DNA of 64,000 nucleotides from Deltaproteobacteria bacterium CG11_big_fil_rev_8_21_14_0_20_47_16 (GCA_002796325.1 PCXA01000006.1:970-64969); one strand, 5' to 3'. Positions 2,371 through 52,136 are shown, numbered from the stretch's first letter. The notes: generated from the sequence alone by a model not told the origin. Made by a program: numbers and translations.

Positions 2371-2396
2371 TATCGGTTAATTTTCAAAAAAGTTGC
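2371..2396 (-). promoter_or_regulatory. sigma28-like promoter GCAAC-N15-CCGATA
   Basis: Minus strand GCAACTTTTTTGAAAATTAACCGATA, ~170 nt upstream of POT gene; one of 7 copies. Confidence 0.65.
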
Positions 2397-2535
2397 GCCA
2401 AAATAAAAATCTATTTAAAAAGGGATAGATAGATAAGTTCTTAGACCAGGCTAACTTGTCACACAAAGTTCACATTTCAATTTATACCATAAATCATTGA
2501 AATGAGTGACTCGCACTGATAGCAGGGAAAACCCT

Positions 2536-3936
2536 ATGAAAAACAATCCTTACGCTCCATTTGTTGAAGTATTTTGGGAACATCAAATCCTTCCGACATT
2601 CCATGATTTTTTGCGTATACCTAACGTATCCCCCGCTTTCGACCCCAATTGGATCAAAAATGGTCATATGGAGAAGGCAATCCAACTTATATCAAAATGG
2701 ATTCAAGCACAGGATCTTCCAGGTGCAACATTGCACATAGAACGACTACCCCAACGTACCCCACTACTCATTGTCGACATCCCAGGCACAATAAAGAAAA
2801 ATGTCCTGATCTATGGACACCTTGATAAACAACCTGAGGCAAGTGGCTGGCTCCCAGGCCTTGGGCCATGGGCACCCGTCGTCAAAGATAACAAGCTATA
2901 CGCACGCGGTACAGTCGATGACGGCTATGCCGTTTTTGCTGCAGTGGGGGCCATCAAGGCTGCCCTCGAGCAAAAGCTACCGCTACCCCACATTGTTCTA
3001 TTAATTGAATGTGCAGAAGAAACAGGATCCGAAGACCTTGAAGCATATTGTGATCATTGCAGCGCACTAATTGGTTCACCTGATTTGATTGTGTGCCTCG
3101 ATGCAGGGGGTGCCAACTACGACCAACTATGGATTTCCACTTCTCAGCGTGGCGTTGTGACGGGCACATTGAAGGTACAAGTTTTGGAAACAGGTGCCCA
3201 TTCCGGTGGCGCCAGTGGCGTTGTTCCCTCCTCATTTCGTATCTTGAGACAACTCCTGGATCGTATCGAAGACGCTAATACGGGCAACATCTCCATTGAA
3301 GCTTTACATGCACCGATTCCGCCACAGCGTCTTGCAGAGGCAAAGGACCTAGCCACGTTTTTGGGTAATACTGTGCATCGTGCATACACATTTCCTCAGG
3401 GAACACTCCCAATGAGCAATGACCCACTCGAATTAATTCTCAATCGATCATGGCGCCCAACCTTATCCTATATTGGTCAGGACGGTATGCCACCAAGCCA
3501 AACGGGTGGCAATATGTTGCGGCCCTTCACTCAATTAAAATTAAGTTTTCGCCTACCACCCACAGTATCCGCAACACATGCCGCAAAGGCAATCCAGACA
3601 ACGCTAACACAGGACCCACCTTATGGTGCAAAGGTCTCATTTGATATTGATGGTGCTGATAATGGCTGGGTTGTTCCAGAGTCTGGACCAAAATTAACCC
3701 AACTGGTAACAGAAGCCTGCCAAATGTCATATGGCAAGCCTCCCATGTTTATGGGTCTTGGTGGATCGATTCCATTTTTAGCATCTTTTGGCCAAAAGTT
3801 TCCCAACGCAGAGTTTATTGTAACGGGTGCATTAGGGCCCGGCAGTAACGCACATGGACCCAATGAATTTTTGGATATTCCGTTTACAAAGAGGTTAATC
3901 GCCAGCCTTGCCTACATTTTGGGGAGATGTGGTTGA
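2536..3936 (+). CDS. M20 family metallopeptidase (dipeptidase/DapE-like)
   Basis: YGHLDKQP, LYARGTVDD, EETGS, HSG, NAHGPNE motifs. Confidence 0.92.
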   Translation: MKNNPYAPFVEVFWEHQILPTFHDFLRIPNVSPAFDPNWIKNGHMEKAIQLISKWIQAQDLPGATLHIERLPQRTPLLIVDIPGTIKKNVLIYGHLDKQPEASGWLPGLGPWAPVVKDNKLYARGTVDDGYAVFAAVGAIKAALEQKLPLPHIVLLIECAEETGSEDLEAYCDHCSALIGSPDLIVCLDAGGANYDQLWISTSQRGVVTGTLKVQVLETGAHSGGASGVVPSSFRILRQLLDRIEDANTGNISIEALHAPIPPQRLAEAKDLATFLGNTVHRAYTFPQGTLPMSNDPLELILNRSWRPTLSYIGQDGMPPSQTGGNMLRPFTQLKLSFRLPPTVSATHAAKAIQTTLTQDPPYGAKVSFDIDGADNGWVVPESGPKLTQLVTEACQMSYGKPPMFMGLGGSIPFLASFGQKFPNAEFIVTGALGPGSNAHGPNEFLDIPFTKRLIASLAYILGRCG

Positions 3937-6726
3937 TCCACTTGGAACAGACAATCCAAATGCTGAGAAAAGTTGTTCAGAATCCAAATTGGGTCGCTCT
4001 GTGTGTAACACAGCTTGAATTTCAGAACGCTGCCTCTGAATTTCCTCCATGAAGAAATCCCGTGCAACAGGATCACGCTGTACCAAATAGACAAAACCGG
4101 GGTCTGAAATAATACCTGCCAAGAGACGGCGGGCTGCTTGTGGATCTTGAGATAATTGCTTAATGTACATTTTGGTTACAAGACCCAAATCCTTTGCCGT
4201 GTAATACCCAGTAGGCAACAAATTACCCAATCGCAGACTAAGAACAAACTCACGGCCTTCGGTATCAGTGATACTCGCCTCTTCCCGATGTAAATTGGCA
4301 AGCGCTTGTGCACGTTCTATTGGACGATTTTCATAGCTCAAATCCTCCTCAAGACTACGAACCCACATTCTGGGTGGTTCACCATGTGCAACATCGTTAA
4401 TGGGCTCAAACAAACCAGCAAGGATTAACAAGCCCGGTAAGAAGGCCAAATAGTTATTAAATCGTTCAGGGCGCACCATGCCACGCACACCTGGTGTAAA
4501 TAATAAATTCACAAAGCCACTCACGAAAACACGACCACCTGATACAAGCCATGTTGATGGATCTGTATAACCAGTGAGCGCCTTAGTTGAAATTGTAATT
4601 GGCGCTGATAGAGGACCGCTAACCAACGTTGTTGCTGAAATGGCTGGGAGCCGACCATATCGCACCCCTTGCCTCACTGAACGACCCAAAAACTGCCACC
4701 AAGGAACAGGTGATCCCTCGACTTTAGGAAAACGCAAATCATCAAGAGCCGTCATATCACCAGGTGGTACTTGAATAGCGATTGCTTCTTCAGGTAGATT
4801 TCTAACAACATTTTGTGGGGCACATCGAGGTGCAGGAACCACCAACTTGATTTTCCCCTCACGAATCAGCCTTGATAATGTACTACGACCATTCAGAGAC
4901 ATAACCAATCCCACACTATTTACAGGAAAGTTCACCATACTCGGATAATCGGTTGATGTTTCAACAGAATCTGGATCCACCAATGAGCCAAGAGAGTTGG
5001 CACCGCGCTCCCACTCACGACGTTCCATAGCCAAAGTCACCACTCCCATGTTCATGGACTCAATCACTGCACGAGACACTGGTACCAAAGGGGACTTGGG
5101 CTGAACCACGTAACGCTGTTGTCCAGCGATAGTTGCAATCGCGCCATAGACTGCATCATCGGGAGTATTGGGATCTGTCAGTTCAATTGTCAAATTCGTG
5201 GGCCACAAAGCACTATGCAATGCACTTCTCACGGGTGCAGGCGTCAGATGTAATGGAGAAAAGAATATGGCACGTGGACGCACTCCACTGACAAAGGGGC
5301 GACGACTAATTGCACGAGCCAGTTGCGGCATCAACGTTGCTGCAGGGCCTTGGAATTGAACTGTATATGTCCCCGAACCTGGCATTTCTCGACGTGAAGG
5401 GAGACCCTGATGTGATTTATGGTGCTTGAGCACTCCAGAAGTAACCATCAGACCATTTTGCGGCAGTTCATTCAAATTAATATCTTGTTTTAGAATAAGA
5501 ACACGGCCCGTTCCTTTGGCCTTTCTTTGCCAGTAAACACGATCTCTTATAGCCACACCATCCGCCCAAGCACGTGTGGCATCATTGTCTGCCAGACGAC
5601 TTCCTGCAATTAGAACCGTAGCCCGATTGACCTGAGTGAAATGAGCATCTGTAACATTGCGATTCCTAATGTTCTGAATGGTAGTTACTGTCACCACACC
5701 ACCCTGATCACGAACCACACCACGCAGCGTCAAAAACTCCGTATAGGGGATTCCAGAAATTGTTGCAGTAACAGGCGTATTCGCTAATTGCTGAGTAGCA
5801 GCAGCAACATTTGCATCTTGTAGATGTGCAGCTTCAATTGAAAATTTAAATCGACCTCTACCTGTACGAAACAACTCTCTAACATTTTCTACAGTTGCTT
5901 CGAACAATCTATCACCAGATAGAATTGTCGGTTCATGTCGTGTACGATCACGCATAAAGACATGTTGGAAAACAAGTCCAGGTAGACGGAATGTCAGTCG
6001 GGATACCAACGACCACGCACCAAGGAACGCCCACATACCCATCACTAAAAAGTTGGCTGTCGATGCACCATAGTTGGAACGGAAACTGGAAAGCACAAAC
6101 CCGTCACGCAAAAGGGCAGAAATTGTGTATGGTGCCGTGTAAATCCAGCCCACCATCAAAAGCGTGCCTGCAGCACCAGTCAAACCAACACTCTCCGCCA
6201 ATGTGGTGACCCCACCCACAATGGGACGCTTCCGATAGTCTTGCATGATAACCATTGAAATGCCCGACAAAAGCAGTAACGCTGTAAGTGGTTTGAACCA
6301 GTCATACGCTGTGCCCGTCACGCGATCGACTTCTATTCCTGCAGCATTAAGTCCCTCTACAACACGATCCATAATGCGACCTGGGTGCTGAATTGGAGAA
6401 AAGAAACTATGATCTTCTGAGATGCCTTTGGTACGAAACACATGTGTACCTCTATTCACACCTCGCTTCATGGCTTGTTCAACGATATCGACAGGGACAA
6501 CATTTGGATCAGTAAATATTTGTAGAGGGCTAGCAGACATTGAAGGATCAACAATGGAAGTTGTGGGCGCTTGTGCATCAGCAGAAGCTGGTACAATTGA
6601 TGCACCAGTAAGCCCTGCCGTGCCAATGGCAATACGAGCCGCCCACTCTCCCAATTGGTTTCGCGTTCTTAAACCAAGAGGTTCGGGCGTAACTCTGATC
6701 TTACCCATTTTACCCATTCCACCCAT
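3895..6726 (-). CDS. Large orphan protein (943 aa) with several hydrophobic segments
   Basis: Long ORF with SD GAAGGGA; no recognisable family motif. Confidence 0.8.
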   Translation of the reverse strand: MGGMGKMGKIRVTPEPLGLRTRNQLGEWAARIAIGTAGLTGASIVPASADAQAPTTSIVDPSMSASPLQIFTDPNVVPVDIVEQAMKRGVNRGTHVFRTKGISEDHSFFSPIQHPGRIMDRVVEGLNAAGIEVDRVTGTAYDWFKPLTALLLLSGISMVIMQDYRKRPIVGGVTTLAESVGLTGAAGTLLMVGWIYTAPYTISALLRDGFVLSSFRSNYGASTANFLVMGMWAFLGAWSLVSRLTFRLPGLVFQHVFMRDRTRHEPTILSGDRLFEATVENVRELFRTGRGRFKFSIEAAHLQDANVAAATQQLANTPVTATISGIPYTEFLTLRGVVRDQGGVVTVTTIQNIRNRNVTDAHFTQVNRATVLIAGSRLADNDATRAWADGVAIRDRVYWQRKAKGTGRVLILKQDINLNELPQNGLMVTSGVLKHHKSHQGLPSRREMPGSGTYTVQFQGPAATLMPQLARAISRRPFVSGVRPRAIFFSPLHLTPAPVRSALHSALWPTNLTIELTDPNTPDDAVYGAIATIAGQQRYVVQPKSPLVPVSRAVIESMNMGVVTLAMERREWERGANSLGSLVDPDSVETSTDYPSMVNFPVNSVGLVMSLNGRSTLSRLIREGKIKLVVPAPRCAPQNVVRNLPEEAIAIQVPPGDMTALDDLRFPKVEGSPVPWWQFLGRSVRQGVRYGRLPAISATTLVSGPLSAPITISTKALTGYTDPSTWLVSGGRVFVSGFVNLLFTPGVRGMVRPERFNNYLAFLPGLLILAGLFEPINDVAHGEPPRMWVRSLEEDLSYENRPIERAQALANLHREEASITDTEGREFVLSLRLGNLLPTGYYTAKDLGLVTKMYIKQLSQDPQAARRLLAGIISDPGFVYLVQRDPVARDFFMEEIQRQRSEIQAVLHTERPNLDSEQLFSAFGLSVPSGSTTSPQNVGKAGD

Positions 6727-6747
6727 TCAACAGTCCCTTCAATTATA

Positions 6748-6773
6748 TATCGGCACATCACAACAAAAGTTGC
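6748..6773 (-). promoter_or_regulatory. sigma28-like promoter GCAAC-N15-CCGATA
   Basis: Minus strand GCAACTTTTGTTGTGATGTGCCGATA, 22 nt upstream of ATG 6726. Confidence 0.75.
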
Positions 6774-6785
6774 TTAACGACGATG

Positions 6786-9425
6786 TTATTTCACTAGCAC
6801 AATTTCAGTCGAACCTGAGAGACTCACTCCAGTATCTGGTATCAGTATAAATGACAGACTTTCACCATCAGATCCCCGCCAAGTAAAGAGGAACGTGCCT
6901 TTCCCAAGATCCTGAAGAGAAAACAATCGTTTTATTCCAGAAAGCGCCTGCAGCAACCCCTGCATCTCAGGATTGTATACAAAAAGTTCTGTAGCAATTT
7001 CATGGACATTGGCCGCTTTGAAGGCTGAAACCAGCTGAGAAATATCCCTTAAAGATTCTTCCGCATCTGCGTATTCCTTTGCACGAGTCCGCAATTCCCC
7101 ACTCTGCTGGATCACCGTTACGTCTTGATCATCAAAAAGTGGGAGCTTTAAGAAGTCCAACTCCTCTTTGCATTGCGCAACGCGTTTGGCCATCAACGCA
7201 CGCCCATATTCGATACTACCAATTGGATCATTAGCCCAACGCTCTCTAAAAACGTCTTCCTGAATATCCAATGACAGTCTCTGATCATCAAAATATTTGA
7301 AACGCTTTTGTATCGCTTCATTCAGGTGGACTTTTACTACCGACTCCAAATTTTTTAGTGGCGGTAACTTGGAAAGCACTTCGTTACCCACTCTTAATGC
7401 AACCAAGAATCCAAGCTGTTTGACCAATGACTGACGTGAGTAAGCTTTTTCAAGTGTATCCAAAGGATTAAATGGAGCATCCGCAAAAAATTCCTGCCGC
7501 ATCATATCCATCGGCGTCCAAGCACCAGCAAAGAATGTGTACGTCGGCAACATCTGCGCTGCCTCACTCCCTAAAGTGACAAGACGCGTGCCATACCATG
7601 TGGCTGCACGAGCACCCAGAGCACCGGTCAACGAACCCCTTGTCCACTCACCCATCGGCCTACCATATTTAAGTGCAATCTTACCCAGAGCACCAAACAA
7701 CACAGTATTAGAAGCAACTTCATAACTCCATCCACCCACACCATCAGGGACTTCCTGATCTACCCAAACATTGCCAAGAGAATTCGAGCTCACTGTAAAG
7801 GTAGCTGCGTTAGCCAAAAGAGAACCAAACTGAATGGCACGTGTAGAATAATTGGCGGCAATCATCGCTGCCTCAACTTCTCCAGCTACCACTCCTGCGA
7901 TACCGGCGCTTGCAGCGGTCACCAAAACCATGGCACCCATATAATTATAAAATGCAATATCTTGGTATTTACCGGCCAATGTAAACAAAGATTGAAACCG
8001 TGGCGTTCCCACTGCAGTAATATACGAGTGTTGTGCGCTAAAAAGTTGTTTCAATGCTTCTGTATTATTCCCAGCTTTGAACGCAACATCTGCTGCTAAA
8101 ATTGCACTATGTGCGGCATCCACTTGCATCATAATTGGCTTCAGAATACGGCTATATTCCGGCACACCAGGAACCAATATCCACCAATTTCCTCGAAATG
8201 ACTTGTCCATTACTTGTAAAATGTCGCGGGATGTTGCGATCACTTTCTTCATCTTAGCGATGCCTTCTTCGGGAGTCATCGAAGGCGATTTGTACGATTC
8301 CGCAGCTTGAGCCATTTCTTCCATACGTTTTACAACGCTGGCACGACGATTGGTAATGTCTGCAAGACGCTTCCAGGGCTCGCCACCCCAATATTCAAAT
8401 TTCTGCTCTGCTCGATTCCACGTTGCATTTGCAGTCAGTTCCGATTTCTGGTGCTCAACACTCGCATCATCATGATTCAAAGTTCTAAATACATTGTCAT
8501 ATTCTGAAACAAGCGATGTATCCTTAATTGCACTGTAAGATTTTTGGAGTGCTTGTTCGTTCAAATGATCTGCCGGAAGTGTAGAGGGATTAAACCCATC
8601 CACAATCTCGGGGTATTCCTTTGCATAATGGCCCAACCATGGAAAATCGCTTCCAACAAGTGGGCTTGTATATTGTTTAAGCTGGGTAACGGCCTTCTTG
8701 TAACGTTGTGTCACCTGATCATATTGCGCCAACAACTGTATATGCTGAGCAACACCCTTTAAAAGGCTTGCACCGCGCGTATTAAGTGACTCATTCTGAC
8801 TATTCATAGCCGCAATGCCAATAAAAAAATCATCAACAACAACTTGGGCAAGCGGAGTTGCGTATTTGATAACGTTATCTTTAGCCATCAACGATCGCAA
8901 ATTTTGCGAGACTGTAACCAGGCGTGTTATGATCGGAATGTACGATGCTACCCATCGTAATTCTTCATCAAATGAAGCCAGTGATTTTGAATCTTGCCAC
9001 CATGCAGACCGCTTAATGGGGCTATCAACCCCAGCCTCGATTCCATTCATGGACTCAACAAAACCAAGGAGCATCCGTTTGAATTTCAAAATACCAATGG
9101 CAGCACCTGCCGAATAATCTCCCGTTGCACTTGACTCATCAAACCATTTTTTATGGGTTTCCAAAAATTTCTTAATTTCATCAGTCAAAACACGGCGGTC
9201 TTCCAACCAGACGCGAACGTCTGCATAATCGTTGTGGAGAGGTGAAAATAATCGATTTTCCGGAAGCGTGATATTAAACGAAGGTAACTCACCAATATTT
9301 AAGTATTTTTCTACACTTGTACCATTTGATTGTGTTTGACCAAACACCCCCAGTTGGGCAGGTGTCAACGACTGGAGTGGCGGTGTCACTTGGGGGACAC
9401 CTATCCCGACTTTCACATTTCCCAC
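6786..9425 (-). CDS. Large orphan alpha-helical protein (879 aa) with central Gly/Ala-rich hydrophobic region
   Basis: Long ORF, GTG start after AGGGG; hydrophobic stretch YMGAMVLVTAASAGIAGVVAG. Confidence 0.8.
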   Translation of the reverse strand: MGNVKVGIGVPQVTPPLQSLTPAQLGVFGQTQSNGTSVEKYLNIGELPSFNITLPENRLFSPLHNDYADVRVWLEDRRVLTDEIKKFLETHKKWFDESSATGDYSAGAAIGILKFKRMLLGFVESMNGIEAGVDSPIKRSAWWQDSKSLASFDEELRWVASYIPIITRLVTVSQNLRSLMAKDNVIKYATPLAQVVVDDFFIGIAAMNSQNESLNTRGASLLKGVAQHIQLLAQYDQVTQRYKKAVTQLKQYTSPLVGSDFPWLGHYAKEYPEIVDGFNPSTLPADHLNEQALQKSYSAIKDTSLVSEYDNVFRTLNHDDASVEHQKSELTANATWNRAEQKFEYWGGEPWKRLADITNRRASVVKRMEEMAQAAESYKSPSMTPEEGIAKMKKVIATSRDILQVMDKSFRGNWWILVPGVPEYSRILKPIMMQVDAAHSAILAADVAFKAGNNTEALKQLFSAQHSYITAVGTPRFQSLFTLAGKYQDIAFYNYMGAMVLVTAASAGIAGVVAGEVEAAMIAANYSTRAIQFGSLLANAATFTVSSNSLGNVWVDQEVPDGVGGWSYEVASNTVLFGALGKIALKYGRPMGEWTRGSLTGALGARAATWYGTRLVTLGSEAAQMLPTYTFFAGAWTPMDMMRQEFFADAPFNPLDTLEKAYSRQSLVKQLGFLVALRVGNEVLSKLPPLKNLESVVKVHLNEAIQKRFKYFDDQRLSLDIQEDVFRERWANDPIGSIEYGRALMAKRVAQCKEELDFLKLPLFDDQDVTVIQQSGELRTRAKEYADAEESLRDISQLVSAFKAANVHEIATELFVYNPEMQGLLQALSGIKRLFSLQDLGKGTFLFTWRGSDGESLSFILIPDTGVSLSGSTEIVLVK

Positions 9426-9485
9426 ACGATCACCCCTAACATGTCAATTTGCATATACAACCAGGCTGCACATGCCCTAATTACT

Positions 9486-9511
9486 TATCGTCATTTTTCT
9501 AAAAAAGTTGC
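9486..9511 (-). promoter_or_regulatory. sigma28-like promoter GCAAC-N15-ACGATA
   Basis: Minus strand GCAACTTTTTTAGAAAAATGACGATA upstream of 879-aa ORF. Confidence 0.7.
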
Positions 9512-9571
9512 TTATAGCATCTCAACCCAGCTAGAAATGCGATCCATGCTGAAAAAAAATAGAAAATCTAA

Positions 9572-9597
9572 GCAACTTTTTTAGCAGGAAACCGATA
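9572..9597 (+). promoter_or_regulatory. sigma28-like promoter GCAAC-N15-CCGATA
   Basis: GCAACTTTTTTAGCAGGAAACCGATA upstream of amidoligase-like ORF; divergent from the 9486-9511 copy. Confidence 0.75.
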
Positions 9598-9692
9598 TTG
9601 GGTATGAGACGAAGCGGGCATTTTCTATTGCCCTGTAACATGGGTTCTGATTAGGTTTAACCAACTGAGTGTATTCACTCATCGAGGTTACG

Positions 9693-12098
9693 ATGGCACC
9701 GCCTATTAATACATTTCCCCCTGCGCATGCTGCCCTTATTGAGTATGCCCAAAGGACATTTGGAGCAGGAAGTCTCGCCGTTCACGATCTTGGTGAACGC
9801 CCCCAACGAGTATGGACCGCCGCCACACTTGTTAATCAATATGGCGTTCCACCACTCATGGCAGTAGCTAAGGTCTTCGAACATCCCCCGCTACCCACCA
9901 TGGTTTTACTCGCAGAACAATTGGGAGGTCTTTTTCAACAGACCCAAGTTACCCAAGTGCTTCAAGCCAGTAATCCCACCAATATTGCCAGCATCATGAC
10001 TGCAGCGGGATTCACCACATTTTCGCAAGCACTCACACCCCAAATGAATGGCATTTTGCGGGGTACACAATTTTTTATGCAAATCATTCATGACCATCTC
10101 GATGAGGCTATTAGGGCTGGACAAAAGATTGGTGTCGAAATCGAGTTCTCGCCGCATGGTACAGCCCAAACCCGTGATGATGCATATTTGGCTCTCAAAG
10201 CCCAACTTGAATCAAAGGGCTATACAGTTACGCTTCATGAAGGAGATCGCGATTTTGTTTATGGCGCAAAGCCAGGTATTTTCCCCACAACACGTGGTTA
10301 CTTTGATTGGAATAAACAAATTGTCGCAGAGCTCTTAGTTGCCACCAGCTCCATCATGCACACCATTACACGCAGCGAAGATGACTCGGTTCGTCTACGT
10401 GCCAAATCAGAGGACGTTGAGGGTGCCTTTGCAGAAATGTACGAACGTGTTGCTGAAGCGCTGGGACTGGATAGTGTGGACAGTGTCAAAACACTCATGG
10501 CAAGAGGAGCCCCCGAATACACTCAAAAGAATGTATATTTACTTAAGGATGATTCTGGGGACATTGCCAAAGTAGAAGTTGAGTTATTGGGAAACAATAA
10601 AGCTCGCCTAACCGGCCTTAATTGCACAATCTACGACCCAGCAGAAAAAGAGCGCATTGCAAAACCATTCATTGATATTGATACCACCGGGACCACACCA
10701 GCTGAGCGATTCAAAGCAGTAGATGTTTATCTGCGAAAAAAAGTTGCCCGAACCGCTTTTGCCAAAAAAGTTGACCGATACAGTGGCCTCAGCATCAAGG
10801 GTATCGATGGCCAATTTAAAATCGTTGTGGAAGCGGATCCGGACTTAGAACTGATTACACCTAAATTAGATGCAGGACAAATCGATATTGTAGAGCATTT
10901 AATCGCGGGTCTTCATACAGCTGGGTTTGAAGGGACCCGTGCCAAAAATGTGGTGGGCGTCCACGTGCATGGGGGCATTCCCCTCGTCTTCCGTACGGGT
11001 GATGGCCAGCTCAAACCCACCGTCGCGCCATTATTGAACCTCATGCGGGCCTATGGACGAGATGCACATCTCATCACTGCCGCCATTCCAACACACCCCA
11101 ATCGCGAAGGGTTCATCCATTCAATCCGACCCGAGCTTACTGACTTGGCGAATGAAATTAATTATGTCACAGATCCCACAGACCCTAAGCAAATCCTACG
11201 CGTTTGCGCAGATCTGGTCCGACTAACGCGCACCAAATACACGGCCCTCAATCTGGACAACCATGTTTCCAAACTTTTGGGACTCATGATCTTGGGCGAC
11301 GAAACAGAAGGTATCCAACCAATTCTCACGGATAAGCAATACAACGTGACACATACGTACAGGGATACAAGTGGTGTTGAGCATCGACTGGAATATGCGT
11401 TTGCCATTGATATCAAAAGGGAAGGTGGCAAAGTGATTGATGCCAGCGTGCGATTACTCACATTGCTCCCAGATGACCGGCCACGAGACGAAGATGGCAA
11501 CCTACCCGATTATGTAGAGATGATTCGCATCAAATTGAGTGCGTGGAAACAGACGGCTGAGATGAGACACTATGACACGTATTTATTGGATCCCAGGATT
11601 ACACCGCTATTTGCAAAATTTTCGGCCGCCTATATTCATCGCTATGGCAAATCTTATTTACTACCCGCATCTGAGTTCCGTCCCAAACCAGCAGTGCCTG
11701 CAGGTGAACGTGGCTTTGCAACCATTGGTGCAATGGGAGCACCTTTATTTATGGCAGCTGACGCCGTTACTGCTGCAAAGACTGCGGCACAGCGGGCTTT
11801 TGCAGGTGCCCAGGCACTCCCGGCCTACCCTGTCACCCAAGCTGAACTGCAACCACTCCTTAGACAGGCATTGATTGGGCTAAATATTCCACCAGCTCTG
11901 TTAGACGCGTATGTTCGTGGTGACGGCTCTCCACTCACCACCACTCAAATTACCAGCCATCTTCGTGCGGCGGGATACGACGGTCTTCTAGAGGCTATCC
12001 AACATGCCCGCCACATGGCACCGCTTGAGCACGAACGACAAGAACGTGAGGGACTTTTCAGACGCCGCGGCTGGTCAGATATTGCACGCCGTCGATAA
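9693..12098 (+). CDS. Amidoligase_2-like (COOH-NH2 ligase) domain protein with large insertion and extensions
   Basis: Ordered motifs IGVEIEF, LELITP, GVHVHG, KYTALNL, TAEMR; likely start ATG 9693 after GAGG. Confidence 0.7.
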   Translation: MAPPINTFPPAHAALIEYAQRTFGAGSLAVHDLGERPQRVWTAATLVNQYGVPPLMAVAKVFEHPPLPTMVLLAEQLGGLFQQTQVTQVLQASNPTNIASIMTAAGFTTFSQALTPQMNGILRGTQFFMQIIHDHLDEAIRAGQKIGVEIEFSPHGTAQTRDDAYLALKAQLESKGYTVTLHEGDRDFVYGAKPGIFPTTRGYFDWNKQIVAELLVATSSIMHTITRSEDDSVRLRAKSEDVEGAFAEMYERVAEALGLDSVDSVKTLMARGAPEYTQKNVYLLKDDSGDIAKVEVELLGNNKARLTGLNCTIYDPAEKERIAKPFIDIDTTGTTPAERFKAVDVYLRKKVARTAFAKKVDRYSGLSIKGIDGQFKIVVEADPDLELITPKLDAGQIDIVEHLIAGLHTAGFEGTRAKNVVGVHVHGGIPLVFRTGDGQLKPTVAPLLNLMRAYGRDAHLITAAIPTHPNREGFIHSIRPELTDLANEINYVTDPTDPKQILRVCADLVRLTRTKYTALNLDNHVSKLLGLMILGDETEGIQPILTDKQYNVTHTYRDTSGVEHRLEYAFAIDIKREGGKVIDASVRLLTLLPDDRPRDEDGNLPDYVEMIRIKLSAWKQTAEMRHYDTYLLDPRITPLFAKFSAAYIHRYGKSYLLPASEFRPKPAVPAGERGFATIGAMGAPLFMAADAVTAAKTAAQRAFAGAQALPAYPVTQAELQPLLRQALIGLNIPPALLDAYVRGDGSPLTTTQITSHLRAAGYDGLLEAIQHARHMAPLEHERQEREGLFRRRGWSDIARRR

Positions 12099-12143
12099 TT
12101 TGGAACACTTGTCATCGATCAGCCACCATGCTACCCCCGCGAC

Positions 12144-13118
12144 ATGGCTGACATCTTTACATCACAGGACGCGCCACCCACTTGGCTGAAGGATAAGGCC
12201 ATTACGGTATTCGGCTATGGCGCCCAGGGCGAGGCTCAGGCCCTTAACTTGAAGGATATGGGTTGTAGGGTCACCGTTTGCCTTTATCCCGGCAGCAAAT
12301 CGATTGATAAGGCCAAAGCAGCAGGGCTGACCGTTATGACCGACCCGGCCATGGCCGCACGCCAAACCGAGGTTGCTGTCTTGTTAACCCCCGATGCCGC
12401 TATACCAGCGCTCTGGGAATCCGCACTGCGGGACGCCCTACCCAGCAAGTGTGCCCTTATTTTCGCGCATGGGTTTACAATTCACTATAATTTGATGACG
12501 CCCAAGCCGACCCAAGATGTCTTGCTCGTCGCACCTATGGGACATGGCAGCATCTTGCGTCAGCAGTTTTTAGACGGCGGCGCAATTCCCGCAGTCTATG
12601 CCATCCATCAAGATGGCACAGGGAACGCCAAAGATATTGCGCTCGCTTATGCCCAAGCCATTGGATGCGCGCGTGTGGGCGCAATCACCTCCACATTTAA
12701 GGAAGAAACCGAAACGGATTTATTTGCCGAGCAAACCACAAGCGTCGGTGGGCTCACCGCGTTGATTGGTGCATCATTTGATACCATGGTCGCGGCAGGC
12801 TATCAGCCGGAAATTGCATACTGGTCCACACTGCGCGAAATGGAAGGCATGATGCGCATTATTGCAAATCGCGGTATGGCGGCATTTGTGGACAACGTCA
12901 GTGCCACTGCCAAGTACGGAGCATTAACACGGGGTCGTCGCATTATTAGCGATGCCACACGCGCTGAGATGAAAACGATCATGGACGAAATTCAGTCCGG
13001 CAAATTTTTGAAAGAGTTGCAACAAGAAGCCCAAGAAGGTTACCCCAAATCCAAAGACGCTATTCGTGAAATGAAATCGAATTCCATTGAAACCACGCAT
13101 CAGGAGTTTACCAAATGA
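12144..13118 (+). CDS. ilvC: Ketol-acid reductoisomerase
   Basis: GYGAQGEAQALNL, FAHGF, ETETDLFAEQ, SATAKYG. Confidence 0.93.
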   Translation: MADIFTSQDAPPTWLKDKAITVFGYGAQGEAQALNLKDMGCRVTVCLYPGSKSIDKAKAAGLTVMTDPAMAARQTEVAVLLTPDAAIPALWESALRDALPSKCALIFAHGFTIHYNLMTPKPTQDVLLVAPMGHGSILRQQFLDGGAIPAVYAIHQDGTGNAKDIALAYAQAIGCARVGAITSTFKEETETDLFAEQTTSVGGLTALIGASFDTMVAAGYQPEIAYWSTLREMEGMMRIIANRGMAAFVDNVSATAKYGALTRGRRIISDATRAEMKTIMDEIQSGKFLKELQQEAQEGYPKSKDAIREMKSNSIETTHQEFTK

Positions 13119-14506
13119 CATGTCGTGTTCGCTTTGCCCCATCCCCCACTGGCCACTTGCACATTGGCGGCGCCCGCACCGCACTTTACAATTGGCTGCT
13201 TGCCCGCAAACTGGGTGGTAAATTTATTTTGCGCGTCGAAGACACTGACACCGAGCGCTCCACGCAGGAATACGTGGATTCCATCATGGACGGCATGCGC
13301 TGGTTGGGATTGCTGTGGGATGAAGGACCTTATCACCAAATGGAACGCATGGACATTTACCGCGCGCACGTGGACCAACTCATGCGCGAAGGCAATGCGT
13401 ACCGCTGTTATTGCACCGTTGAAGAATTAACCGCCAAACGCGAAGCCGCCCAAAAGGCCGGCCAAAAGCCTAAGTACGACGGCACCTGTCGCGATCTTAA
13501 CTTGCAAGATGATTCACGCCCCTATGTCATTCGATTCAAGGCACCCACTAAAGGCACGACCGTTGTGCACGATGCCATTCGTGGCGACATTCCATTTGAA
13601 AACAAGGAACTTGATGACCTAATCATCATGCGCGGCAATAACACCCCCACCTATAATTTTACAGTGGTGGTTGATGACGTGACCATGAAGATCACACACG
13701 TCATTCGCGGTGACGACCATTTGAACAACACACCCCGTCAAATCTTGATGTACAACGCGTTTAATTATCCTGTTCCCACATTTGCGCACTTACCCATGAT
13801 TTTAGGGTCGGACAAAAAGAAATTGTCCAAGCGCCATGCAGCGACTTCTGTCGTGGCCTATCGTGATTTGGGTTATTTGCCCGAAGCGCTCCTCAACTAT
13901 TTGGCGCGGCTTGGGTGGTCACACGGCGATCAAGAAATCTTTTCACTCATGGACATGATTGAAGCCTTTGATTTGGAACACGTTGGAAAATCGGCTGCGA
14001 TTTTTGATCCCGACAAATTGAACTGGGTCAATCAACAACACATTAAAAAGCTAGGCGACGCCGAGCTCACCCACATGTGTGTCCCCTTCTTTCAAAAGGA
14101 AGGTGTTGCATGGGATAATCAAGAATTTGCCATTGCCGCCGTACGTTCTGAACGCGAACGCGCAAAAACACTCGCTGACATAGCCAAACAATGCCGTTTC
14201 TATTTTGTCGATCAGGTGGAATATGATCCAGCGTCCGTTGAAAAATGGCTCACCGCAGATGGCAAAGCACTACTGCAAAAAATCCATGATCGCATGACCC
14301 AGGTGGAACCTTTCACAGCTGAAGCCATTGGTGCGGCATTTAAAGAATTGGTGACCGAATCAGGACTTAAGATGGTTTCCCTCGCCCAGCCCTGCCGCGT
14401 GGCTCTTTGCGGCTGCACGGTAAGCCCCGGCGTTTACGAAGTCATGGCGATTCTAGGCAAAGAAAAAACGCTCAAGCGCCTTACTGCCGCTATTAATAAA
14501 TCTTAA
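13115..14506 (+). CDS. gltX: Glutamate--tRNA ligase
   Basis: RFAPSPTG, HIGG, KLSKR. Confidence 0.97.
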   Translation: MTCRVRFAPSPTGHLHIGGARTALYNWLLARKLGGKFILRVEDTDTERSTQEYVDSIMDGMRWLGLLWDEGPYHQMERMDIYRAHVDQLMREGNAYRCYCTVEELTAKREAAQKAGQKPKYDGTCRDLNLQDDSRPYVIRFKAPTKGTTVVHDAIRGDIPFENKELDDLIIMRGNNTPTYNFTVVVDDVTMKITHVIRGDDHLNNTPRQILMYNAFNYPVPTFAHLPMILGSDKKKLSKRHAATSVVAYRDLGYLPEALLNYLARLGWSHGDQEIFSLMDMIEAFDLEHVGKSAAIFDPDKLNWVNQQHIKKLGDAELTHMCVPFFQKEGVAWDNQEFAIAAVRSERERAKTLADIAKQCRFYFVDQVEYDPASVEKWLTADGKALLQKIHDRMTQVEPFTAEAIGAAFKELVTESGLKMVSLAQPCRVALCGCTVSPGVYEVMAILGKEKTLKRLTAAINKS

Positions 14507-14816
14507 TACGTTTGATGCGAAGTCCGTGGGATGTGCGGCTCACGTCGTAGCCAATGTGCGCGCCAACAGTGAGGTATTTTCTGTGATTTTTGGTACCGCA
14601 AAAATCCATTTCATCTACATGAAAAAATAATTCCCGGCCCAAGCGATCTTGCACAAATCCGTAGGACTGGCTCTGAAAATATTTAGTGATAACCCCTTTT
14701 GAGAAGTTGTCATTTTCGTCTACGAATGACGGAACTGTATCCGCACTCGCCGTCACCACAATTGCAGTGGGAAGCGGTGCTTGGTTTGCAGTCCATTGAA
14801 ATAACTCGGTGTTCAT
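14493..14816 (-). CDS. Cold-shock domain protein
   Basis: KGVITKYF..YGFV..ELFFH resembles CSD RNP1/RNP2. Confidence 0.7.
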   Translation of the reverse strand: MNTELFQWTANQAPLPTAIVVTASADTVPSFVDENDNFSKGVITKYFQSQSYGFVQDRLGRELFFHVDEMDFCGTKNHRKYLTVGAHIGYDVSRTSHGLRIKRIKIY

Positions 14817-16205
14817 TTAAACTCCTGGTTCCGTCATTGGGTATGGATTGAGGTGCTTATCCAATTCCGCCTTCGAAATCTTACCCGTCTTTAAAAAAGC
14901 CTCGCGTAAGCTCATGTGCTTGGCAGACGCCTCTTTAATCACAGCGGCAACTGTTTGATAGCCTAAAATAGGATTTAATGCCGTGCCCAGTGCATAGTTG
15001 TGATCGAGCAACTTTTCGCACTGGCTCTTATTCACAGTAATATCCTTTAAACATTTCGCTGTAAAATTATAGAGCTGCGACGCCAGGAGATCGATTGATT
15101 CATATAGCGCATCGCCAATCACGGGATACGCGGTATTTAATTCGCAGTTACTTTCCATCATGCCCATAGTCACAGTGGACTCGTTGCCAATGACGCGCGC
15201 GCAGACTTGAATAAGTGATTCAATAATCACGGGATTCACCTTAGCTGGCATGATGCTGGAACCCGGCTGCACCGCCGCAATTTGCAATTCAGCGATGCCG
15301 GCATGGGGGCCACAGGCTAAAAAGCGGATGTCCCGACCAATACGATTCAATGCAATCGCTACGACTTTGAGCTGCGCCGCCAATTCCATCAGGCTATCGG
15401 GGCATGCCTGCGCCTGAAAGTGATTTCGGGTTTCGGTAAATTTAACACCCAACTCTTCTGAAATAGCTGCAATGGTAAGACGCGCAAACTTGGGGTCGGT
15501 GTTAATCCCAGTTCCCACCGCCGTCCCACCCAATGGCAGTTCAGACAAACGCGGCAACAGCGACTCAAATCGCTCAATCGCCAATTGAATTTGGTGCGCA
15601 TAGCCAGAAAACACCTGACCCACGCGAATGGGAGTGGCATCTTGCAAATGCGTACGGCCTGTTTTGACAATTTTATCGAATTGTTTGGATTTATTAACCA
15701 GCTCGGATTTTAAAACAGCCAATGCGGGTAACAAACGCTCCACCATCAACTGTGTTACCGTAATATGCACCATCGTGGGAATCACATCATTTGAACTTTG
15801 CCCAAAATTGACATGATCATTGGCAAGAACAGCAACACCCTTTTTCACCAACTGAGTTGCACGATGGGCAATGACTTCATTGGCATTCATGTTGGTGGAA
15901 GTGCCTGAACCCGTTTGATAAATATCGACTACGAACTCTGAGTTCCACTGCCCCTGGTAAATTTCCCATGCAGCTTCTGCAATAGCTTTGGCAATCGACT
16001 TATCCAAGTGACCCAGCTTGGCATTTACCTCAGCAGCTTTGGATTTGATCAATCCCAATGTTCGCACCATCTCAGACGCAAACCTAGCGTTGCTAATTGG
16101 AAAGTTCTCGACAGCCCGCTGCGTCGAAGCACCGTACATCACATGAGATGGAACCTTCATCTCGCCCATACTGTCTTTGAGTATTTTATATGATTGCTTT
16201 TGCAT
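14817..16205 (-). CDS. fumC: Class II fumarate hydratase
   Basis: QTGSGTSTNMNANE, GRTHLQDA, GSSIMPAKVNP. Confidence 0.93.
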   Translation of the reverse strand: MQKQSYKILKDSMGEMKVPSHVMYGASTQRAVENFPISNARFASEMVRTLGLIKSKAAEVNAKLGHLDKSIAKAIAEAAWEIYQGQWNSEFVVDIYQTGSGTSTNMNANEVIAHRATQLVKKGVAVLANDHVNFGQSSNDVIPTMVHITVTQLMVERLLPALAVLKSELVNKSKQFDKIVKTGRTHLQDATPIRVGQVFSGYAHQIQLAIERFESLLPRLSELPLGGTAVGTGINTDPKFARLTIAAISEELGVKFTETRNHFQAQACPDSLMELAAQLKVVAIALNRIGRDIRFLACGPHAGIAELQIAAVQPGSSIMPAKVNPVIIESLIQVCARVIGNESTVTMGMMESNCELNTAYPVIGDALYESIDLLASQLYNFTAKCLKDITVNKSQCEKLLDHNYALGTALNPILGYQTVAAVIKEASAKHMSLREAFLKTGKISKAELDKHLNPYPMTEPGV

Positions 16206-16308
16206 AAGACTCCCTGGTTATTGACGCTGAAACCAAAGTTACCTAGCAAAGCCCGAACCCAATTCCAAGTCTAGACATCTAAAAAATAGTGTGATTAAAA
16301 CGACCACT

Positions 16309-16656
16309 ATGGCAATTTATACAGAAAATCGCCCTTGGGGCCAGTTTGCAGTTCTAGATGAAGGCCAGGGCTATAAAGTCAAACGGGTCACTGTTATGCC
16401 TGGTAAGCGCCTTAGTTACCAATATCACAACTATCGTCACGAGCACTGGATTGTAGTGGAAGGTACAGTGACCATCACACTAGATGGCAAGGAACTCACC
16501 CTCCAAGCCGGTGACTATATTAACATACCCATTAAAGCCCATCATCGCATGGGCAACAATACCGCAATACCCATGTCGCTCATTGAAATTCAGCGCGGCA
16601 GTCGCGTTGACGAAGACGATATCGTACGTCTCGAAGATGACTTTGGACGAGAATAA
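16309..16656 (+). CDS. Cupin protein, type II mannose-6-phosphate isomerase C-terminal-like
   Basis: RPWG, LSYQYH..RHEHW, EDDIVRLEDDF. Confidence 0.88.
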   Translation: MAIYTENRPWGQFAVLDEGQGYKVKRVTVMPGKRLSYQYHNYRHEHWIVVEGTVTITLDGKELTLQAGDYINIPIKAHHRMGNNTAIPMSLIEIQRGSRVDEDDIVRLEDDFGRE

Positions 16657-16658
16657 TT

Positions 16659-17873: not shown

Positions 17874-18589
17874 TTCCAGTCAGCGAACAATTTTTATCCA
17901 TTCAAGGTGAAGGACCCACCGCAGGAAAACGTGCCATCTTTTTGCGCACACACGCCTGCAACCTATTATGCGGTGCGGGGAAATATGCCAAAGAGAGCAC
18001 TTGGACGTGTGACACTATTCCAGTTTTTACAAAAATTCAGAAGCACTATACCGCCGAAGAACTATTCAGCGACTGGGAAACGCGTGGGTGGATCACAGAA
18101 TTAACCCGGGGTACCCATCTGGTAATCACCGGCGGCGAACCGCTAATTCTTGAACGTCAAGAGCAGCTCATTCCCTTTTTAAAAATGCTCAAAGACCCAT
18201 TTATTGAAGTTGAAACCAATGGCACAATCTGTCCCTCACCCGCACTTAATACACATATTGCCCAATATAATGTATCGCCCAAGCTAACGTCCAGTGGCAT
18301 GCCCAAGGCAATGCGCTTTGTACCTGAAGTGATTCAATGGCACTGCCAAAATCCACGGTCATTTTTCAAATTTGTCGTAACCAATAAAGAGGATGTACGG
18401 GATTTGACCAACACCTACATAACCCCCTTCAACATCCCTCTAAATCGTGTTTGGCTAATGCCTGGTGCAGCAACTCGCAAGACGTTACTAGAATTGCAAC
18501 CTACTATTGCCCAACTTGCCAAAGAGTCAGGTATGAATTTCTGTTCTCGACTCCACATCCTTCTTTACGACCAAACCACGGGCGTGTAA
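17867..18589 (+). CDS. queE: 7-carboxy-7-deazaguanine synthase (radical SAM); start probably non-canonical ATA 17867 or ATT 17873
   Basis: In-frame N-terminus LIPVSEQFLSIQGEG lies upstream of the ORF-track start; CNLLC..W.CDT, ITGGEP, EVETNG, VSPKL, RLHI. Confidence 0.85.
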   Translation: MLIPVSEQFLSIQGEGPTAGKRAIFLRTHACNLLCGAGKYAKESTWTCDTIPVFTKIQKHYTAEELFSDWETRGWITELTRGTHLVITGGEPLILERQEQLIPFLKMLKDPFIEVETNGTICPSPALNTHIAQYNVSPKLTSSGMPKAMRFVPEVIQWHCQNPRSFFKFVVTNKEDVRDLTNTYITPFNIPLNRVWLMPGAATRKTLLELQPTIAQLAKESGMNFCSRLHILLYDQTTGV

Positions 18590-19387: not shown

Positions 19388-19399
19388 GAGTCAGCTGAA

Positions 19400-50228: not shown

Positions 50229-51590
50229 TTACTGTGGCGGCAAAATCTTTGCAACGAGATCGTACGTGTGGGCCTCGGTGATTTCCACATTGGCAAACAT
50301 CCCAGGCTTAAGCTCAACACCGGAATCATCGTTAATGTAGGTCACACCGTCGATTTCGGGCCCCTGCGATTCAATACGCGCCTGCCAGAGAAGGTCTGTC
50401 TCTTCTGAAGGCCCTTCGATCAATGCGCGGTAAGTCTTGCCCACTTTTTCGGCGTTCTTGCGTGCCGCAACTTTGGACTGGGCTGCCATAATGGCTGCGT
50501 GGCGTTCTTGCTTCACATCATCAGGAACTTGGCCTTCCATTTTTGCGGCTTCTGTTCCGTCTTCTACTGAATAGGCAAAACAACCCACATGATCAAAGTG
50601 CCCTTCTTCTACAAACTTGAGCAATTTCATAAACTGCGCATCGGTTTCGCCTGGGAAACCGGCAATTAATGTGGTGCGTAGTGTGATGTCCGGAACTGCA
50701 GTGCGCAATTTTTCAATCACTCGCGGAATGTGGCGCACTGTTGCGGCACGACGCATGGATTTCAAAACATCTTCATCGACATGCTGGATGGGCATGTCGA
50801 CATATTTGCAGAGTGCAGGATGTGTGCGGTAGAGCTCCACTAATTCATCGGTGAACGTATGTGGGAATGTATAGAACAAGCGCACCCATTTATCGCCATC
50901 CAAGTCTGCCATGGCTTTCATGAGTGAAGCCAGATTCAGTGCTGGTTGCAGGTCAGTGCCATATGCAGTGGAGTCTTGCGCAATCAAATTGATTTCCTTG
51001 GTGCCCATGCCAATGTAGCGCTTGGCCTCTTCCAAAATGGAATCGAGAGGTCGCGACCGATGAGGACCACGCAACTGCGGAATGATGCAAAATGCACACT
51101 TGTGGTGGCAGCCTTCTGAAATTTTCAAATAGACACTATGCGTTGCCGTAGTGAGAACACGCGGCGTGTGGTCATCGTACAAATACGTGGGCGTTTGCGA
51201 AATGAGCTCACCCTTCACATTTTTGGTTTGCATAACACCGCTGGTCATTTTGAGCAGTTCGACAATTTTGGGGAATTCACCCGTGCCCACCCACAAGTCC
51301 ACTTCTGGAATTTCAACCGCCAATTCTTCACGGTACCGCTGCGATAAACAACCTGCGACAACCAACTTTTCGCACGCACCTGCTTCTTTGTATTGCGCCA
51401 TTTCCAAAATGGAATCGACAGATTCTTGTTTGGCCGAATCAATGAACGCGCAGGTGTTGACGACCAAGACATTGGCGGTTTCGGGATCTTTGACAATCCG
51501 ATACCCCGCCTTTTGCATGAGGCCCATCATCACTTCGCTGTCTACTTGGTTGCGTGCACAACCTAGGCTTACAAATCCGACGGTTTTCAT
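50229..51590 (-). CDS. rimO: Ribosomal protein S12 methylthiotransferase
   Basis: SLGC..N.VDSE, NTCAFI, KISEGCHHKCAFC, PEIDG TRAM domain. Confidence 0.96.
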   Translation of the reverse strand: MKTVGFVSLGCARNQVDSEVMMGLMQKAGYRIVKDPETANVLVVNTCAFIDSAKQESVDSILEMAQYKEAGACEKLVVAGCLSQRYREELAVEIPEVDLWVGTGEFPKIVELLKMTSGVMQTKNVKGELISQTPTYLYDDHTPRVLTTATHSVYLKISEGCHHKCAFCIIPQLRGPHRSRPLDSILEEAKRYIGMGTKEINLIAQDSTAYGTDLQPALNLASLMKAMADLDGDKWVRLFYTFPHTFTDELVELYRTHPALCKYVDMPIQHVDEDVLKSMRRAATVRHIPRVIEKLRTAVPDITLRTTLIAGFPGETDAQFMKLLKFVEEGHFDHVGCFAYSVEDGTEAAKMEGQVPDDVKQERHAAIMAAQSKVAARKNAEKVGKTYRALIEGPSEETDLLWQARIESQGPEIDGVTYINDDSGVELKPGMFANVEITEAHTYDLVAKILPPQ

Positions 51591-51596: not shown

Positions 51597-52082
51597 TCAG
51601 TTTCCACAGCACTTTTTAAATTTCTTACCACTACCACAGCTGCATGGATCGTTTCGCCCTGGTGTTGGCGTCTCTTTACGCACTGTCACTCCAGGAGTTT
51701 TGCCTTCAACAAAGTACCAATTATCACCACGACGGCGGAAAAAGCCGATTTCATGATGTTCGTGATCTTCACCTTCAACGCGAAAGCGCGCAATAAACTC
51801 CACTTTGCCTTGGCTATCTGCAACGCCGCCCTTTTCAGTTTTCACGACTTCTAGGCCCAACCATTTGGATGACTTGGCCCACTCACGCGCCGAATCAGCA
51901 TCGAAGGGTTCCTTATTATTGGGATCATTGGTACGCGCCACGAAATCAATATCACACTGCGTGTATGCAGTGTAACGTGCGCGCATCAATGCTTCAGCGG
52001 TTGGAGGATTTGCCGTACCCTTCAAATATCGTCCACAACAGTCATCTAATTTTTGTGCAGACCCACATGCGCAATTTGCCAT
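51597..52082 (-). CDS. YchJ family SEC-C motif protein
   Basis: [39 protein letters not shown]. Confidence 0.93.
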
Positions 52083-52110
52083 AAATGCTCCCTTTATCTA
52101 TAGAAGTTGT

Positions 52111-52136
52111 TATCGGTTGATCCCAAAAAAAGTTGC
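52111..52136 (-). promoter_or_regulatory. sigma28-like promoter GCAAC-N15-CCGATA
   Basis: Minus strand GCAACTTTTTTTGGGATCAACCGATA, 29 nt upstream of ychJ-like ATG. Confidence 0.75.

Follow-up and report, generated by a model that had tools for sequence, protein, structure and literature searches.

A motif of two short boxes, GCAAC and CCGATA, recurs in front of genes in a stretch of 64,000 nucleotides from the uncultured groundwater bacterium Deltaproteobacteria bacterium CG11_big_fil_rev_8_21_14_0_20_47_16 (GCA_002796325.1, PCXA01000006.1:970-64969; this whole stretch is called the window, and positions are counted from its first letter). Its sequence properties support a promoter class having the geometry and the -10 element of sigma-28 promoters and an altered -35 element, and it is probable that this class is read by a sigma factor of the sigma-28 family, the gene of which lies outside the window in a cluster for a non-flagellar type III secretion system (T3SS). 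The promoters are of two classes, and of this distinction, which is new here, we are confident: those with a 17-nt spacer precede the T3SS apparatus genes, and those with a 15-nt spacer precede about 75 mostly unannotated or accessory genes. An earlier reading made from the sequence of the window alone (the sequence-only reading) had proposed a sigma-28 paralog with altered specificity and a non-flagellar regulon of orphan, effector-like genes; it missed the spacer-17 class, which would drive the T3SS apparatus, and it also missed the candidate anti-sigma gene.

The genome (1.95 Mb in 20 contigs, 47% G+C, rated 99.75% complete) contains 48 copies of GCAAC-N15-CCGATA, compared with about one expected from 20 third-order Markov simulations. 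When spacers of 10-21 nt were scanned genome-wide, 15 nt gave these 48 copies, 17 nt gave 11, and every other length gave 0-4. The logo from 63 spacer-15 sites is aAGCAACTTTTT-N9-tGCCGATAa. A two-block matrix found 104 sites at a score of at least 16 (82 with spacer 15, 6 with spacer 16, 11 with spacer 17, 4 with spacer 18 and 1 with spacer 14), as against 7 over all scored spacer classes in the reversed sequence. For 89 of the 104, a same-strand open reading frame (ORF) begins no more than 300 nt downstream, which gives 88 target genes; the start codon follows CCGATA at a median distance of 27.5 nt. The genome-wide scan that the sequence-only reading had called for thus found the motif well above background and oriented into the next gene. 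Canonical TAAA-N15-NCGATA is not enriched in this genome (14 matches versus 23 in the reversed control).

The nearly fixed spacing, together with the position and direction upstream of genes, is the behaviour of a promoter, not of a repeat or a symmetric operator. It is very improbable that the two boxes are instead a transcription-factor site or remnants of a dispersed repeat: just the two short boxes are conserved while the spacer sequence varies, the spacing hardly changes, the sites are asymmetric and aimed (89 of 104) at the next gene from short, similar distances, and the second box is identical to a known -10 element. A dispersed repeat or mobile element as such is ruled out by the confinement of the conservation to the two boxes. 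In 21 of the 88 targets the chosen start codon is at most 12 nt from CCGATA, and a Shine-Dalgarno-like sequence is absent from 20 of the 21; either their messages have little or no leader, or the start codons were wrongly called.

Within the window there are five exact copies of GCAAC-N15/16-CCGATA, compared with 0.06 expected (100 shuffles, none reaching five), and the matrix scan returned the same seven sites as the sequence-only reading, with no extra ones. Five of these are exact, and the other two are one-letter variants, as the NCGATA form of the motif implies. The spacer is 15 nt in six sites and 16 nt in one, and all seven are intergenic and directed into the next same-strand ORF, just as had been described; the distance to the gene, which had been given as 14-170 nt, becomes 13-113 nt when counted from the last A of CCGATA to the chosen start codon. 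The seven sites, each found with the matrix, are as follows (absence of a Pfam family is at E<=0.001).

2371-2396, minus strand: putative spacer-15 promoter (GCAACTTTTTTGAAAATTAACCGATA), exact match, matrix score 28.6; 113 nt before the gene for a POT-family transporter at 779-2257(-), PTR2 family.

6748-6773, minus strand: putative spacer-15 promoter, exact match; 21 nt before a 943-aa gene at 3895-6726(-) without a Pfam family.

9486-9511, minus strand: putative spacer-15 promoter, variant with ACGATA; 60 nt before an 879-aa gene at 6786-9425(-) without a Pfam family.

9572-9597, plus strand: putative spacer-15 promoter, exact match, divergent from that at 9486-9511(-); 71 nt before an 809-aa amidoligase-like gene at 9669-12098(+), Amidoligase_2 E 8.9e-8.

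24506-24531, plus strand: putative spacer-15 promoter, variant with GCAACATT...TCGATA; 47 nt before an RCC1-repeat gene at 24579-26321(+), RCC1 families.

29610-29636, minus strand: putative spacer-16 promoter, exact match; 13 nt before a 169-aa gene at 29087-29596(-) without a Pfam family.

52111-52136, minus strand: putative spacer-15 promoter, exact match; 28 nt before a ychJ-like gene at 51597-52082(-), which is followed by rimO at 50229-51590(-).

The earlier descriptions of these targets hold, with the exception of a SelO-like label for the gene after the transporter: this is a sub-threshold match to an ORF truncated by the edge of the window (3-767; E 0.028, 13.6 bits against a cut-off of 22.8). 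A count of sigma-70-type consensus sequences in window positions 1-20000 was uninformative (24 found, 30.9 expected).

Which sigma factor fits these promoters? The genome encodes RpoD, an RpoH-like factor, sigma-54, one FliA/WhiG-like factor, which answers the earlier call for a count of sigma-28-family genes, and one factor in which only region 2 is recognisable (contig C16). The FliA-like protein, of about 280 aa, is encoded at C2:95904-96746 of this genome (G000). Its best NCBIfam match is TIGR02479 FliA_WhiG (E 2.6e-41). Pfam recognises sigma regions 2 and 4, and the protein has domains 2, 3 and 4 without region 1.1. In a phmmer comparison with solved structures, residues 40-261 align end to end with WhiG (6PFJ, E 3.8e-27) and FliA (6PMI, 3.2e-21; 9WSM, 5.4e-20), and the WhiG and FliA chains outrank every SigA/RpoD chain. 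An ortholog is present in 40/40 relatives (49-69% identity), all 40 of which are also enriched for the motif (8-79 matches versus 0-7 in a backwards control); so are 60/60 genomes sampled phylum-wide, all of them within one class.

The sigma factor of the sigma-28 family also matches the promoter at the level of the residues that read it. The sigma-28 promoter form of E. coli is TAAAGTTT-N11-GCCGATAA, and the motif, as GCAACTTT-N11-GCCGATA, has the same layout. The available text of a structural study of Pseudomonas aeruginosa sigma-28 places GCCGATAA at -15 to -8 and, in the fliC promoter, TCTAAAG at -36 to -30, and describes R97 as reading the GC of the extended -10 element and S224 and Q228 of region 4.2 as contacting -35 bases (PMC12784957). 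The sigma factor studied here was mapped onto that protein, the numbering offset being checked with seven residues named in the same source. On the -10 side, R97 and R80 correspond to R126 and R109, both conserved. On the -35 side, S224 is kept as S244, Q228 is replaced by R248, and the adjacent arginine by W245; the recognition helix reads LSKSW(T/V)(S/C)RLH as against ESRVSQ(L/I)H in FliA. All the mapped -10 and -35 residues, including R126, W245 and R248, are invariant in 16/16 aligned orthologs. As for the promoter, the logo (t)GCCGATA(a) and the conserved R126 place the -10 and extended -10 elements in the sigma-28 type, as sequences that this sigma would read, while the -35 box, GCAAC(TTT), stands at the same distance as TAAA(G) and is not a canonical sigma-28 -35 box. 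The sigma factor with its -10-reading side kept and its -35-reading side changed thus matches a promoter with a kept -10 and a changed -35 box.

In the mechanism that we propose, the FliA-like sigma most likely switches on about 90 promoters. It would keep the FliA mode for the -10 and extended -10 elements (GCCGATA), and its altered region 4.2 helix would read GCAACTTT in place of the TAAAGTTT of FliA, at an equal distance. This would be a natural case of altered sigma specificity in which few substitutions in the helix accompany a new -35 box.

Another sigma factor, namely the RpoH-like one, the primary one, or the C16 factor acting in the manner of an extracytoplasmic function (ECF) sigma, is an improbable reader of the motif. 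ECF promoters have an AAC -35 box with a T run and, 16 nt later, a CG-containing -10 box, which the GCAACTTT box and the AAC-N16-CG spacing of the motif resemble, and a divergent sigma-like gene is indeed present on C16. However, the -10 element is GCCGATA(A), the sigma-28 signature, and not CGT(C/A), so that in spite of the AAC and the T run the promoters do not fall into the ECF class. Moreover, clear homologues of the C16 factor occur in 4/40 relatives, yet the motif is enriched in 40/40. The RpoH-like factor scores as sigma-32, the consensus of which differs from the motif, and ribosomal and core housekeeping genes, which would speak for the primary sigma, are absent among the 32 target proteins with families that were looked up. 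The C16 protein itself (C16:1133-1954(-), L004; 274 aa, on a contig of 50.6% G+C) is 86-98% identical in three of these four relatives, though they belong to other families (97-98% in two of them), and is absent from most relatives; this high identity across families with patchy occurrence gives it the look of a mobile gene.

Several points weigh against the assignment of the motif to the FliA-like sigma as a promoter class. Fifteen of the 104 scored sites do not precede a gene. The sigma factor scores 141.8 bits with TIGR02479, below the cut-off of 189.6, and it stays below the cut-off of all FliA, WhiG and sigma-28 equivalog models. Because sigma and motif are both universal in the sampled phylum, their co-occurrence does not discriminate within it: no sampled genome has one without the other, and the link between them is correlative. 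The 14 listed sequencing runs that contain window positions 2001-12000 are all DNA (groundwater and aquifer metagenomes), with no RNA run among them. Finally, 14 of 30 sctU loci, described below, have no site within 300 nt upstream. The promoter class and its pairing with a sigma regulon are nevertheless well supported on sequence grounds.

This sigma factor is supported as a paralogue of canonical FliA, not a leftover of it. Neither Flagellin_N nor Flg_bb_rod (rod/hook) has a match in the genome, which bears out the expectation of a regulon without flagellar genes; the targets are T3SS apparatus genes and diverse non-flagellar genes, so that the regulon is not one of late flagellar, chemotaxis or sporulation control. 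Flagellin is present in 5/40 relatives, each of which also carries a second sigma-28 gene (28-35% identical) that encodes the canonical (E/A)SR(V/I)SQ helix; in three of the five this gene is on the flagellin contig. In one more relative, which lacks flagellin, the KSW-type factor is present in two copies. The paralog with altered specificity that the sequence-only reading had postulated is therefore supported by the coexistence of both factors in five flagellated relatives, by the altered helix and by the lack of enrichment of TAAA-N15-NCGATA, and in relatives having both factors the two probably do not cross-read their promoters.

The five flagellin genes (loci L100-L104; relatives G037, G028, G038, G035 and G002) are preceded, about 70-110 nt before the start codon, by xxAAGTTT-N11/12-TCCGT(C/T), without CGATA. 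This suggests that the true FliA of the phylum uses a CCGT-type -10 box. The pattern AAGTTT-N11/12-TCCGT is not enriched genome-wide in the five flagellated relatives (3-5 matches versus 0-13 in controls), where its rarity precludes a visible enrichment, and the footprint therefore comes from the five flagellin upstream regions.

The gene for the FliA-like sigma stands in a T3SS cluster at 86-109 kb of contig C2. The cluster encodes SctV, an FHA/YscD-type protein, TPR chaperone-like proteins, an SctJ-type lipoprotein, the sigma factor and a FliG_M/C-like protein, and further SctL, SctN, YscO-like proteins, a protein with a FliK-like C-terminus, a FliM-like SctQ, SctR and SctT. SctV scores 778 bits with TIGR01399 (cut-off 692) and fails the FlhA model (679 versus 772); SctR is above its cut-off; SctN passes both the FliI_clade2 and the SctN model; the SctJ-type lipoprotein, of 302 aa, scores 127 with the SctJ model, below the cut-off of 162. 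FlhB/YscU-family proteins were also found, and a gene of the sctU family, present in 29/30 relatives, lies outside the cluster on contig C12. The apparatus is thus that of a non-flagellar T3SS with mixed flagellum-like features, and the question whether the genome has any type III export apparatus, on which the export hypothesis of the sequence-only reading depended, is answered by one with the sigma gene inside its cluster. The flagellum-like parts of this otherwise Sct-type system include the FliK-like C-terminus and an SctQ for which FliM is the only NCBIfam match, and a 350-aa protein at C2:97255-98307 (L044:11256-12308) has FliG middle and C-terminal domains.

The promoters of this apparatus came to light through a failure: GCAAC-N16-CGATA has no match in 41 sigma loci of relatives, which led to the finding that T3SS loci use a spacer of 17 nt. 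Eight spacer-17 sites lie upstream of a gene in the genome. Five precede sctV, the sctU-family gene and three cluster operons, one of which carries the sigma gene; two precede an SLT lytic transglycosylase gene and a second FHA/YscD-type gene; and one precedes a gene for an 80-aa protein without a known family. Spacer-15 sites within the T3SS cluster number zero. The same holds among relatives: in the T3SS loci of 11 of them, 21 of 23 sites have spacer 17 and none has spacer 15, most standing before the same two orthologous genes, and the best site upstream of sctU in 30 loci has spacer 17 in 14, spacer 16 in 2 and spacer 15 in none, the other 14 having no site. Spacer 15 is several times commoner genome-wide than spacer 17, yet it is absent at the sctU loci; the spacer-17 form is itself enriched in most relatives.

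The two classes differ in composition as well. Spacer-17 sites have GGG at spacer positions 9-11, are C-rich near positions 18-19 and have a longer -10 element, CCGATAAT(A), so that the apparatus layout is GCAACTTT-GGG..-N-CCGATAAT with a G/C-rich spacer; the layout before the other genes, about 75 in number, is GCAACTTTTT-N-GCCGATA with a T-rich spacer of 15 nt. Spacer length as a class code, in which 2 bp and a difference in composition set the machine apart from the other genes, would make a clean system for the study of a hierarchy under one sigma factor.

How are the two classes told apart? A spacer-binding activator is a serious alternative here: the spacer-17 sites might be a separate signal that shares its half-sites with the other class and is served by such an activator (MerR-like) or by a modified holoenzyme, giving two inputs instead of two tiers. 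Sigma factors seldom accept a 2-bp change of spacer, and MerR-type regulators act on over-long spacers; in addition, the spacer-17 class has its own conserved GGG, C-rich stretch and longer -10, and several of its spacers contain GGG...CCC inverted repeats. On the other hand, both boxes equal those of the spacer-15 class, most genomes have one sigma factor of this type, and a candidate spacer-binding regulator was not identified, and we hold this explanation to be less likely than not and prefer two promoter classes of one sigma factor.

Two homopolymer runs were noticed between the boxes. The spacer-17 promoter at C1:93234-93261(-), 8 nt before the gene for the 80-aa protein, contains a run of ten G (GCAACTTT-G10-CCTGCCGATA), and a spacer-15 site in a relative (G063:C16:12725-12750) contains a run of nine. 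Slippage in such a homopolymer could alter the spacer length and thereby switch the class or turn the promoter off.

What, then, do the spacer-15 promoters control? Pfam families were compared between 22 targets, namely the 7 in the window and the 15 best-scoring spacer-15 targets outside it (of the 88), and 20 neighbouring non-target genes. Twelve of the 22 targets have no Pfam family, as against 3 of the 20 neighbours (Fisher p = 0.011); the regulon of orphan genes proposed in the sequence-only reading is borne out to this extent, although the comparison is with neighbouring genes and not with the whole genome, a point against it. Nine of the 15 targets from outside the window are without a Pfam family; the rest show TSP3 repeats, an alpha/beta hydrolase fold, or TPR, HEAT, Met-zincin or matrixin domains. 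For the greater part, the spacer-15 genes are lineage-specific, belong to no known family, or encode domains of the protein-interaction or protease kind. The 943-aa protein of the window has a homologue in 1/40 relatives (27% identity), where a spacer-15 site again lies about 40 nt upstream. A YchJ homologue is present in 1/30 relatives, at a locus without a site at a score of at least 12, which is uninformative save as a sign of an accessory gene.

Some of the spacer-15 targets may be secreted effectors. There is a strong minority chance, however, that the spacer-15 regulon is not T3SS cargo at all but serves the cell surface, the envelope or a life stage in general, by way of lipoproteins, secreted proteases, transporters and accessory genes; few or none of the products would then pass through the T3SS, and the sigma gene would simply be located in the T3SS cluster. 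A crude test of N-termini assigns 18 of the 88 targets to the Sec or lipoprotein type, including 10 that have a lipobox, so that the regulon is not purely T3SS cargo; the Met-zincin, matrixin and TSP3-repeat targets begin signal-like; and the POT transporter and YchJ-RimO, being ordinary cytoplasmic or membrane proteins, are implausible as effectors. These observations contradict in part the earlier proposal of a T3SS-exported arsenal. Against a programme unrelated to secretion, the sigma gene and the apparatus promoters are tied to each other across the phylum, 12 of the 22 targets compared are family-less, others have RCC1, HEAT, TPR or amidoligase-like domains and no signal peptide, and such domains are common in injected proteins; furthermore, two targets are lineage-specific (1/30 and 1/40 relatives), as effector sets often are. 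That the bacterium is predatory or host-associated and the regulon life-stage specific, as had been suggested, would go beyond these data. In each genome of a lineage represented by metagenomes only, the spacer-15 box points to several dozen unannotated genes, and these would be a principled shortlist for learning how such small-genome bacteria act on other cells.

Other genes of the window deserve mention. Tail to tail with the gene for the 169-aa target, at 27834-29090(+), is a gene for a sigma-54 activator having an N-terminus of the FHA / YscD-cytoplasmic type, the domain type of a T3SS ring protein. Two adjoining M23 peptidase genes (200 and 181 aa) at 26486-27679(-) are convergent with, and just downstream of, the RCC1 target gene. 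At 37454-38998(+) a single ORF of 514 aa encodes both a radical SAM domain and a complete TatD-type DNase domain; if the ORF is called correctly, this fusion is an unusual one. Three successive genes at 17942-20761(+) (215, 265 and 453 aa) have neither a Pfam family nor the motif, so that the lack of a known family is not confined to the regulon.

An ORF for a protein of 111 aa (C2:95381-95716) immediately precedes the sigma gene and belongs to its spacer-17 operon. Predictions of a complex between this protein and sigma residues 40-265 (16-row alignment) scored 0.83, 0.83 and 0.82, the best of three controls scoring 0.00; in calibration, 58 of 80 solved complexes and 2 of 110 mismatched pairs came up to this mark. 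At least 68% of contacts are common to the runs, and the pLDDT (predicted local distance difference test) of the partner is 61. The predicted interface joins residues 60-109 of the partner to sigma domains 2, 3 and 4; FlgM likewise contacts all three domains of sigma-28, according to the available text of PMC12784957. A small ORF (95-139 aa) occupies this position in 9 of the 13 loci with enough upstream DNA.

The identification of the 111-aa protein as the anti-sigma of this sigma factor, a proposal that is new here and is based on structure prediction, seems to us nearly as apt to be right as wrong. Several facts speak against it. Because FliA-FlgM complexes have been solved, the prediction may have passed through resemblance to them; the 111-aa protein has no Pfam family at E<=1; 4 of the 13 loci have no small ORF; and the proteins at this position are barely alike between families. 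The FlgM model (PF04316) finds nothing credible in the genome, its best matches (E 0.31 and 0.83) being located elsewhere.

By analogy with FliA-FlgM, the 111-aa protein would hold the sigma factor inactive by wrapping its domains 2, 3 and 4; a working secretion machine would then lead to export or loss of the 111-aa protein, and the sigma factor would be freed for the spacer-15 genes. We regard such an export-coupled checkpoint as doubtful. A difficulty in particular is that the apparatus genes and the sigma operon would need the same sigma factor, so that a simple checkpoint of the FlgM type does not explain how the system starts.

How does this system compare with known ones? With FliA-FlgM of E. 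coli/Salmonella and P. aeruginosa (PDB 6PMI, 9WSM, 9WSF and 1RP3) it shares the sigma family, the promoter geometry, GCCGATA(A) and the arginine corresponding to R97; the sigma gene likewise lies in a type III export cluster, and a small neighbour is predicted to wrap sigma domains 2-4. Unlike FliA, the present factor goes with a GCAAC -35 box instead of TAAA(G), has KSWxxR instead of ESRVSQ, belongs to a non-flagellar export type and occurs in a genome without a flagellin or rod/hook match; unlike in FliA-FlgM, about 90 promoters including those of apparatus genes are concerned, no Pfam match to FlgM accompanies the factor, and the factor falls below the FliA_WhiG cut-off.

BtrS of Bordetella, with BtrA/BspR, offers an analogy in an alternative sigma factor encoded with the injectisome, in apparatus and effector genes driven from a common box, and in the logic of a secreted anti-sigma, which is what we propose here. 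BtrA is reportedly an anti-sigma factor, the secretion of which is aided by a T3SS chaperone. In plant pathogens, HrpL with the hrp box follows a similar logic. BtrS and HrpL, however, are ECF (group 4) factors with ECF boxes, in contrast to the group 3, FliA-type factor with a FliA-type -10 box described here, and we know of no description of two spacer-length promoter classes in these systems.

Chlamydia resembles the present case in having a sigma-28-family factor without flagella, a non-flagellar T3SS and a non-motility programme. According to the available text of PMC12282069, hctB and tsp were the only targets that its sigma-28 bound. The present system differs in its roughly 90 promoters, in the altered -35 box, in a regulon that includes apparatus genes and in the place of the sigma gene inside the T3SS cluster. 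Lysobacter enzymogenes, too, lacks flagella but has retained a FliA factor and type III export genes for other use, and these genes are flagellar remnants as far as the available texts describe them (PMC7688988, PMC7277350, PMC9927559), in contrast to a non-flagellar apparatus and a distinct paralogue that coexists with a true FliA and has a changed -35 specificity. No description of this promoter, of this sigma subfamily or of the two spacer classes was found in the literature covered, outside which lie subscription journals and supplements.

Taken to its full extent, the analysis raises the idea that a whole uncultured phylum runs its non-flagellar T3SS by a re-specified FliA-FlgM checkpoint, in which one sigma-28 paralogue, set apart from true FliA by the change in its -35-reading helix, would act on spacer-17 promoters for the apparatus and on spacer-15 promoters for a fast-evolving arsenal of about 75 mostly family-less genes, with a secreted FlgM-like anti-sigma as the timing switch. 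In this complete form the idea is tentative, and we think it unlikely to be right in every part. If it is true, spacer length would be the tier code of a secretion hierarchy, and the spacer-15 box would offer a ready means of detecting new effector families throughout the phylum. Non-flagellar T3SSs descend from flagella, and their regulators are usually unrelated to flagellar ones. An injectisome-type machine that has a FliA-type sigma factor, possibly a FlgM-type partner, and FliG-, FliM- and FliK-like parts would thus be a living intermediate in regulatory logic.

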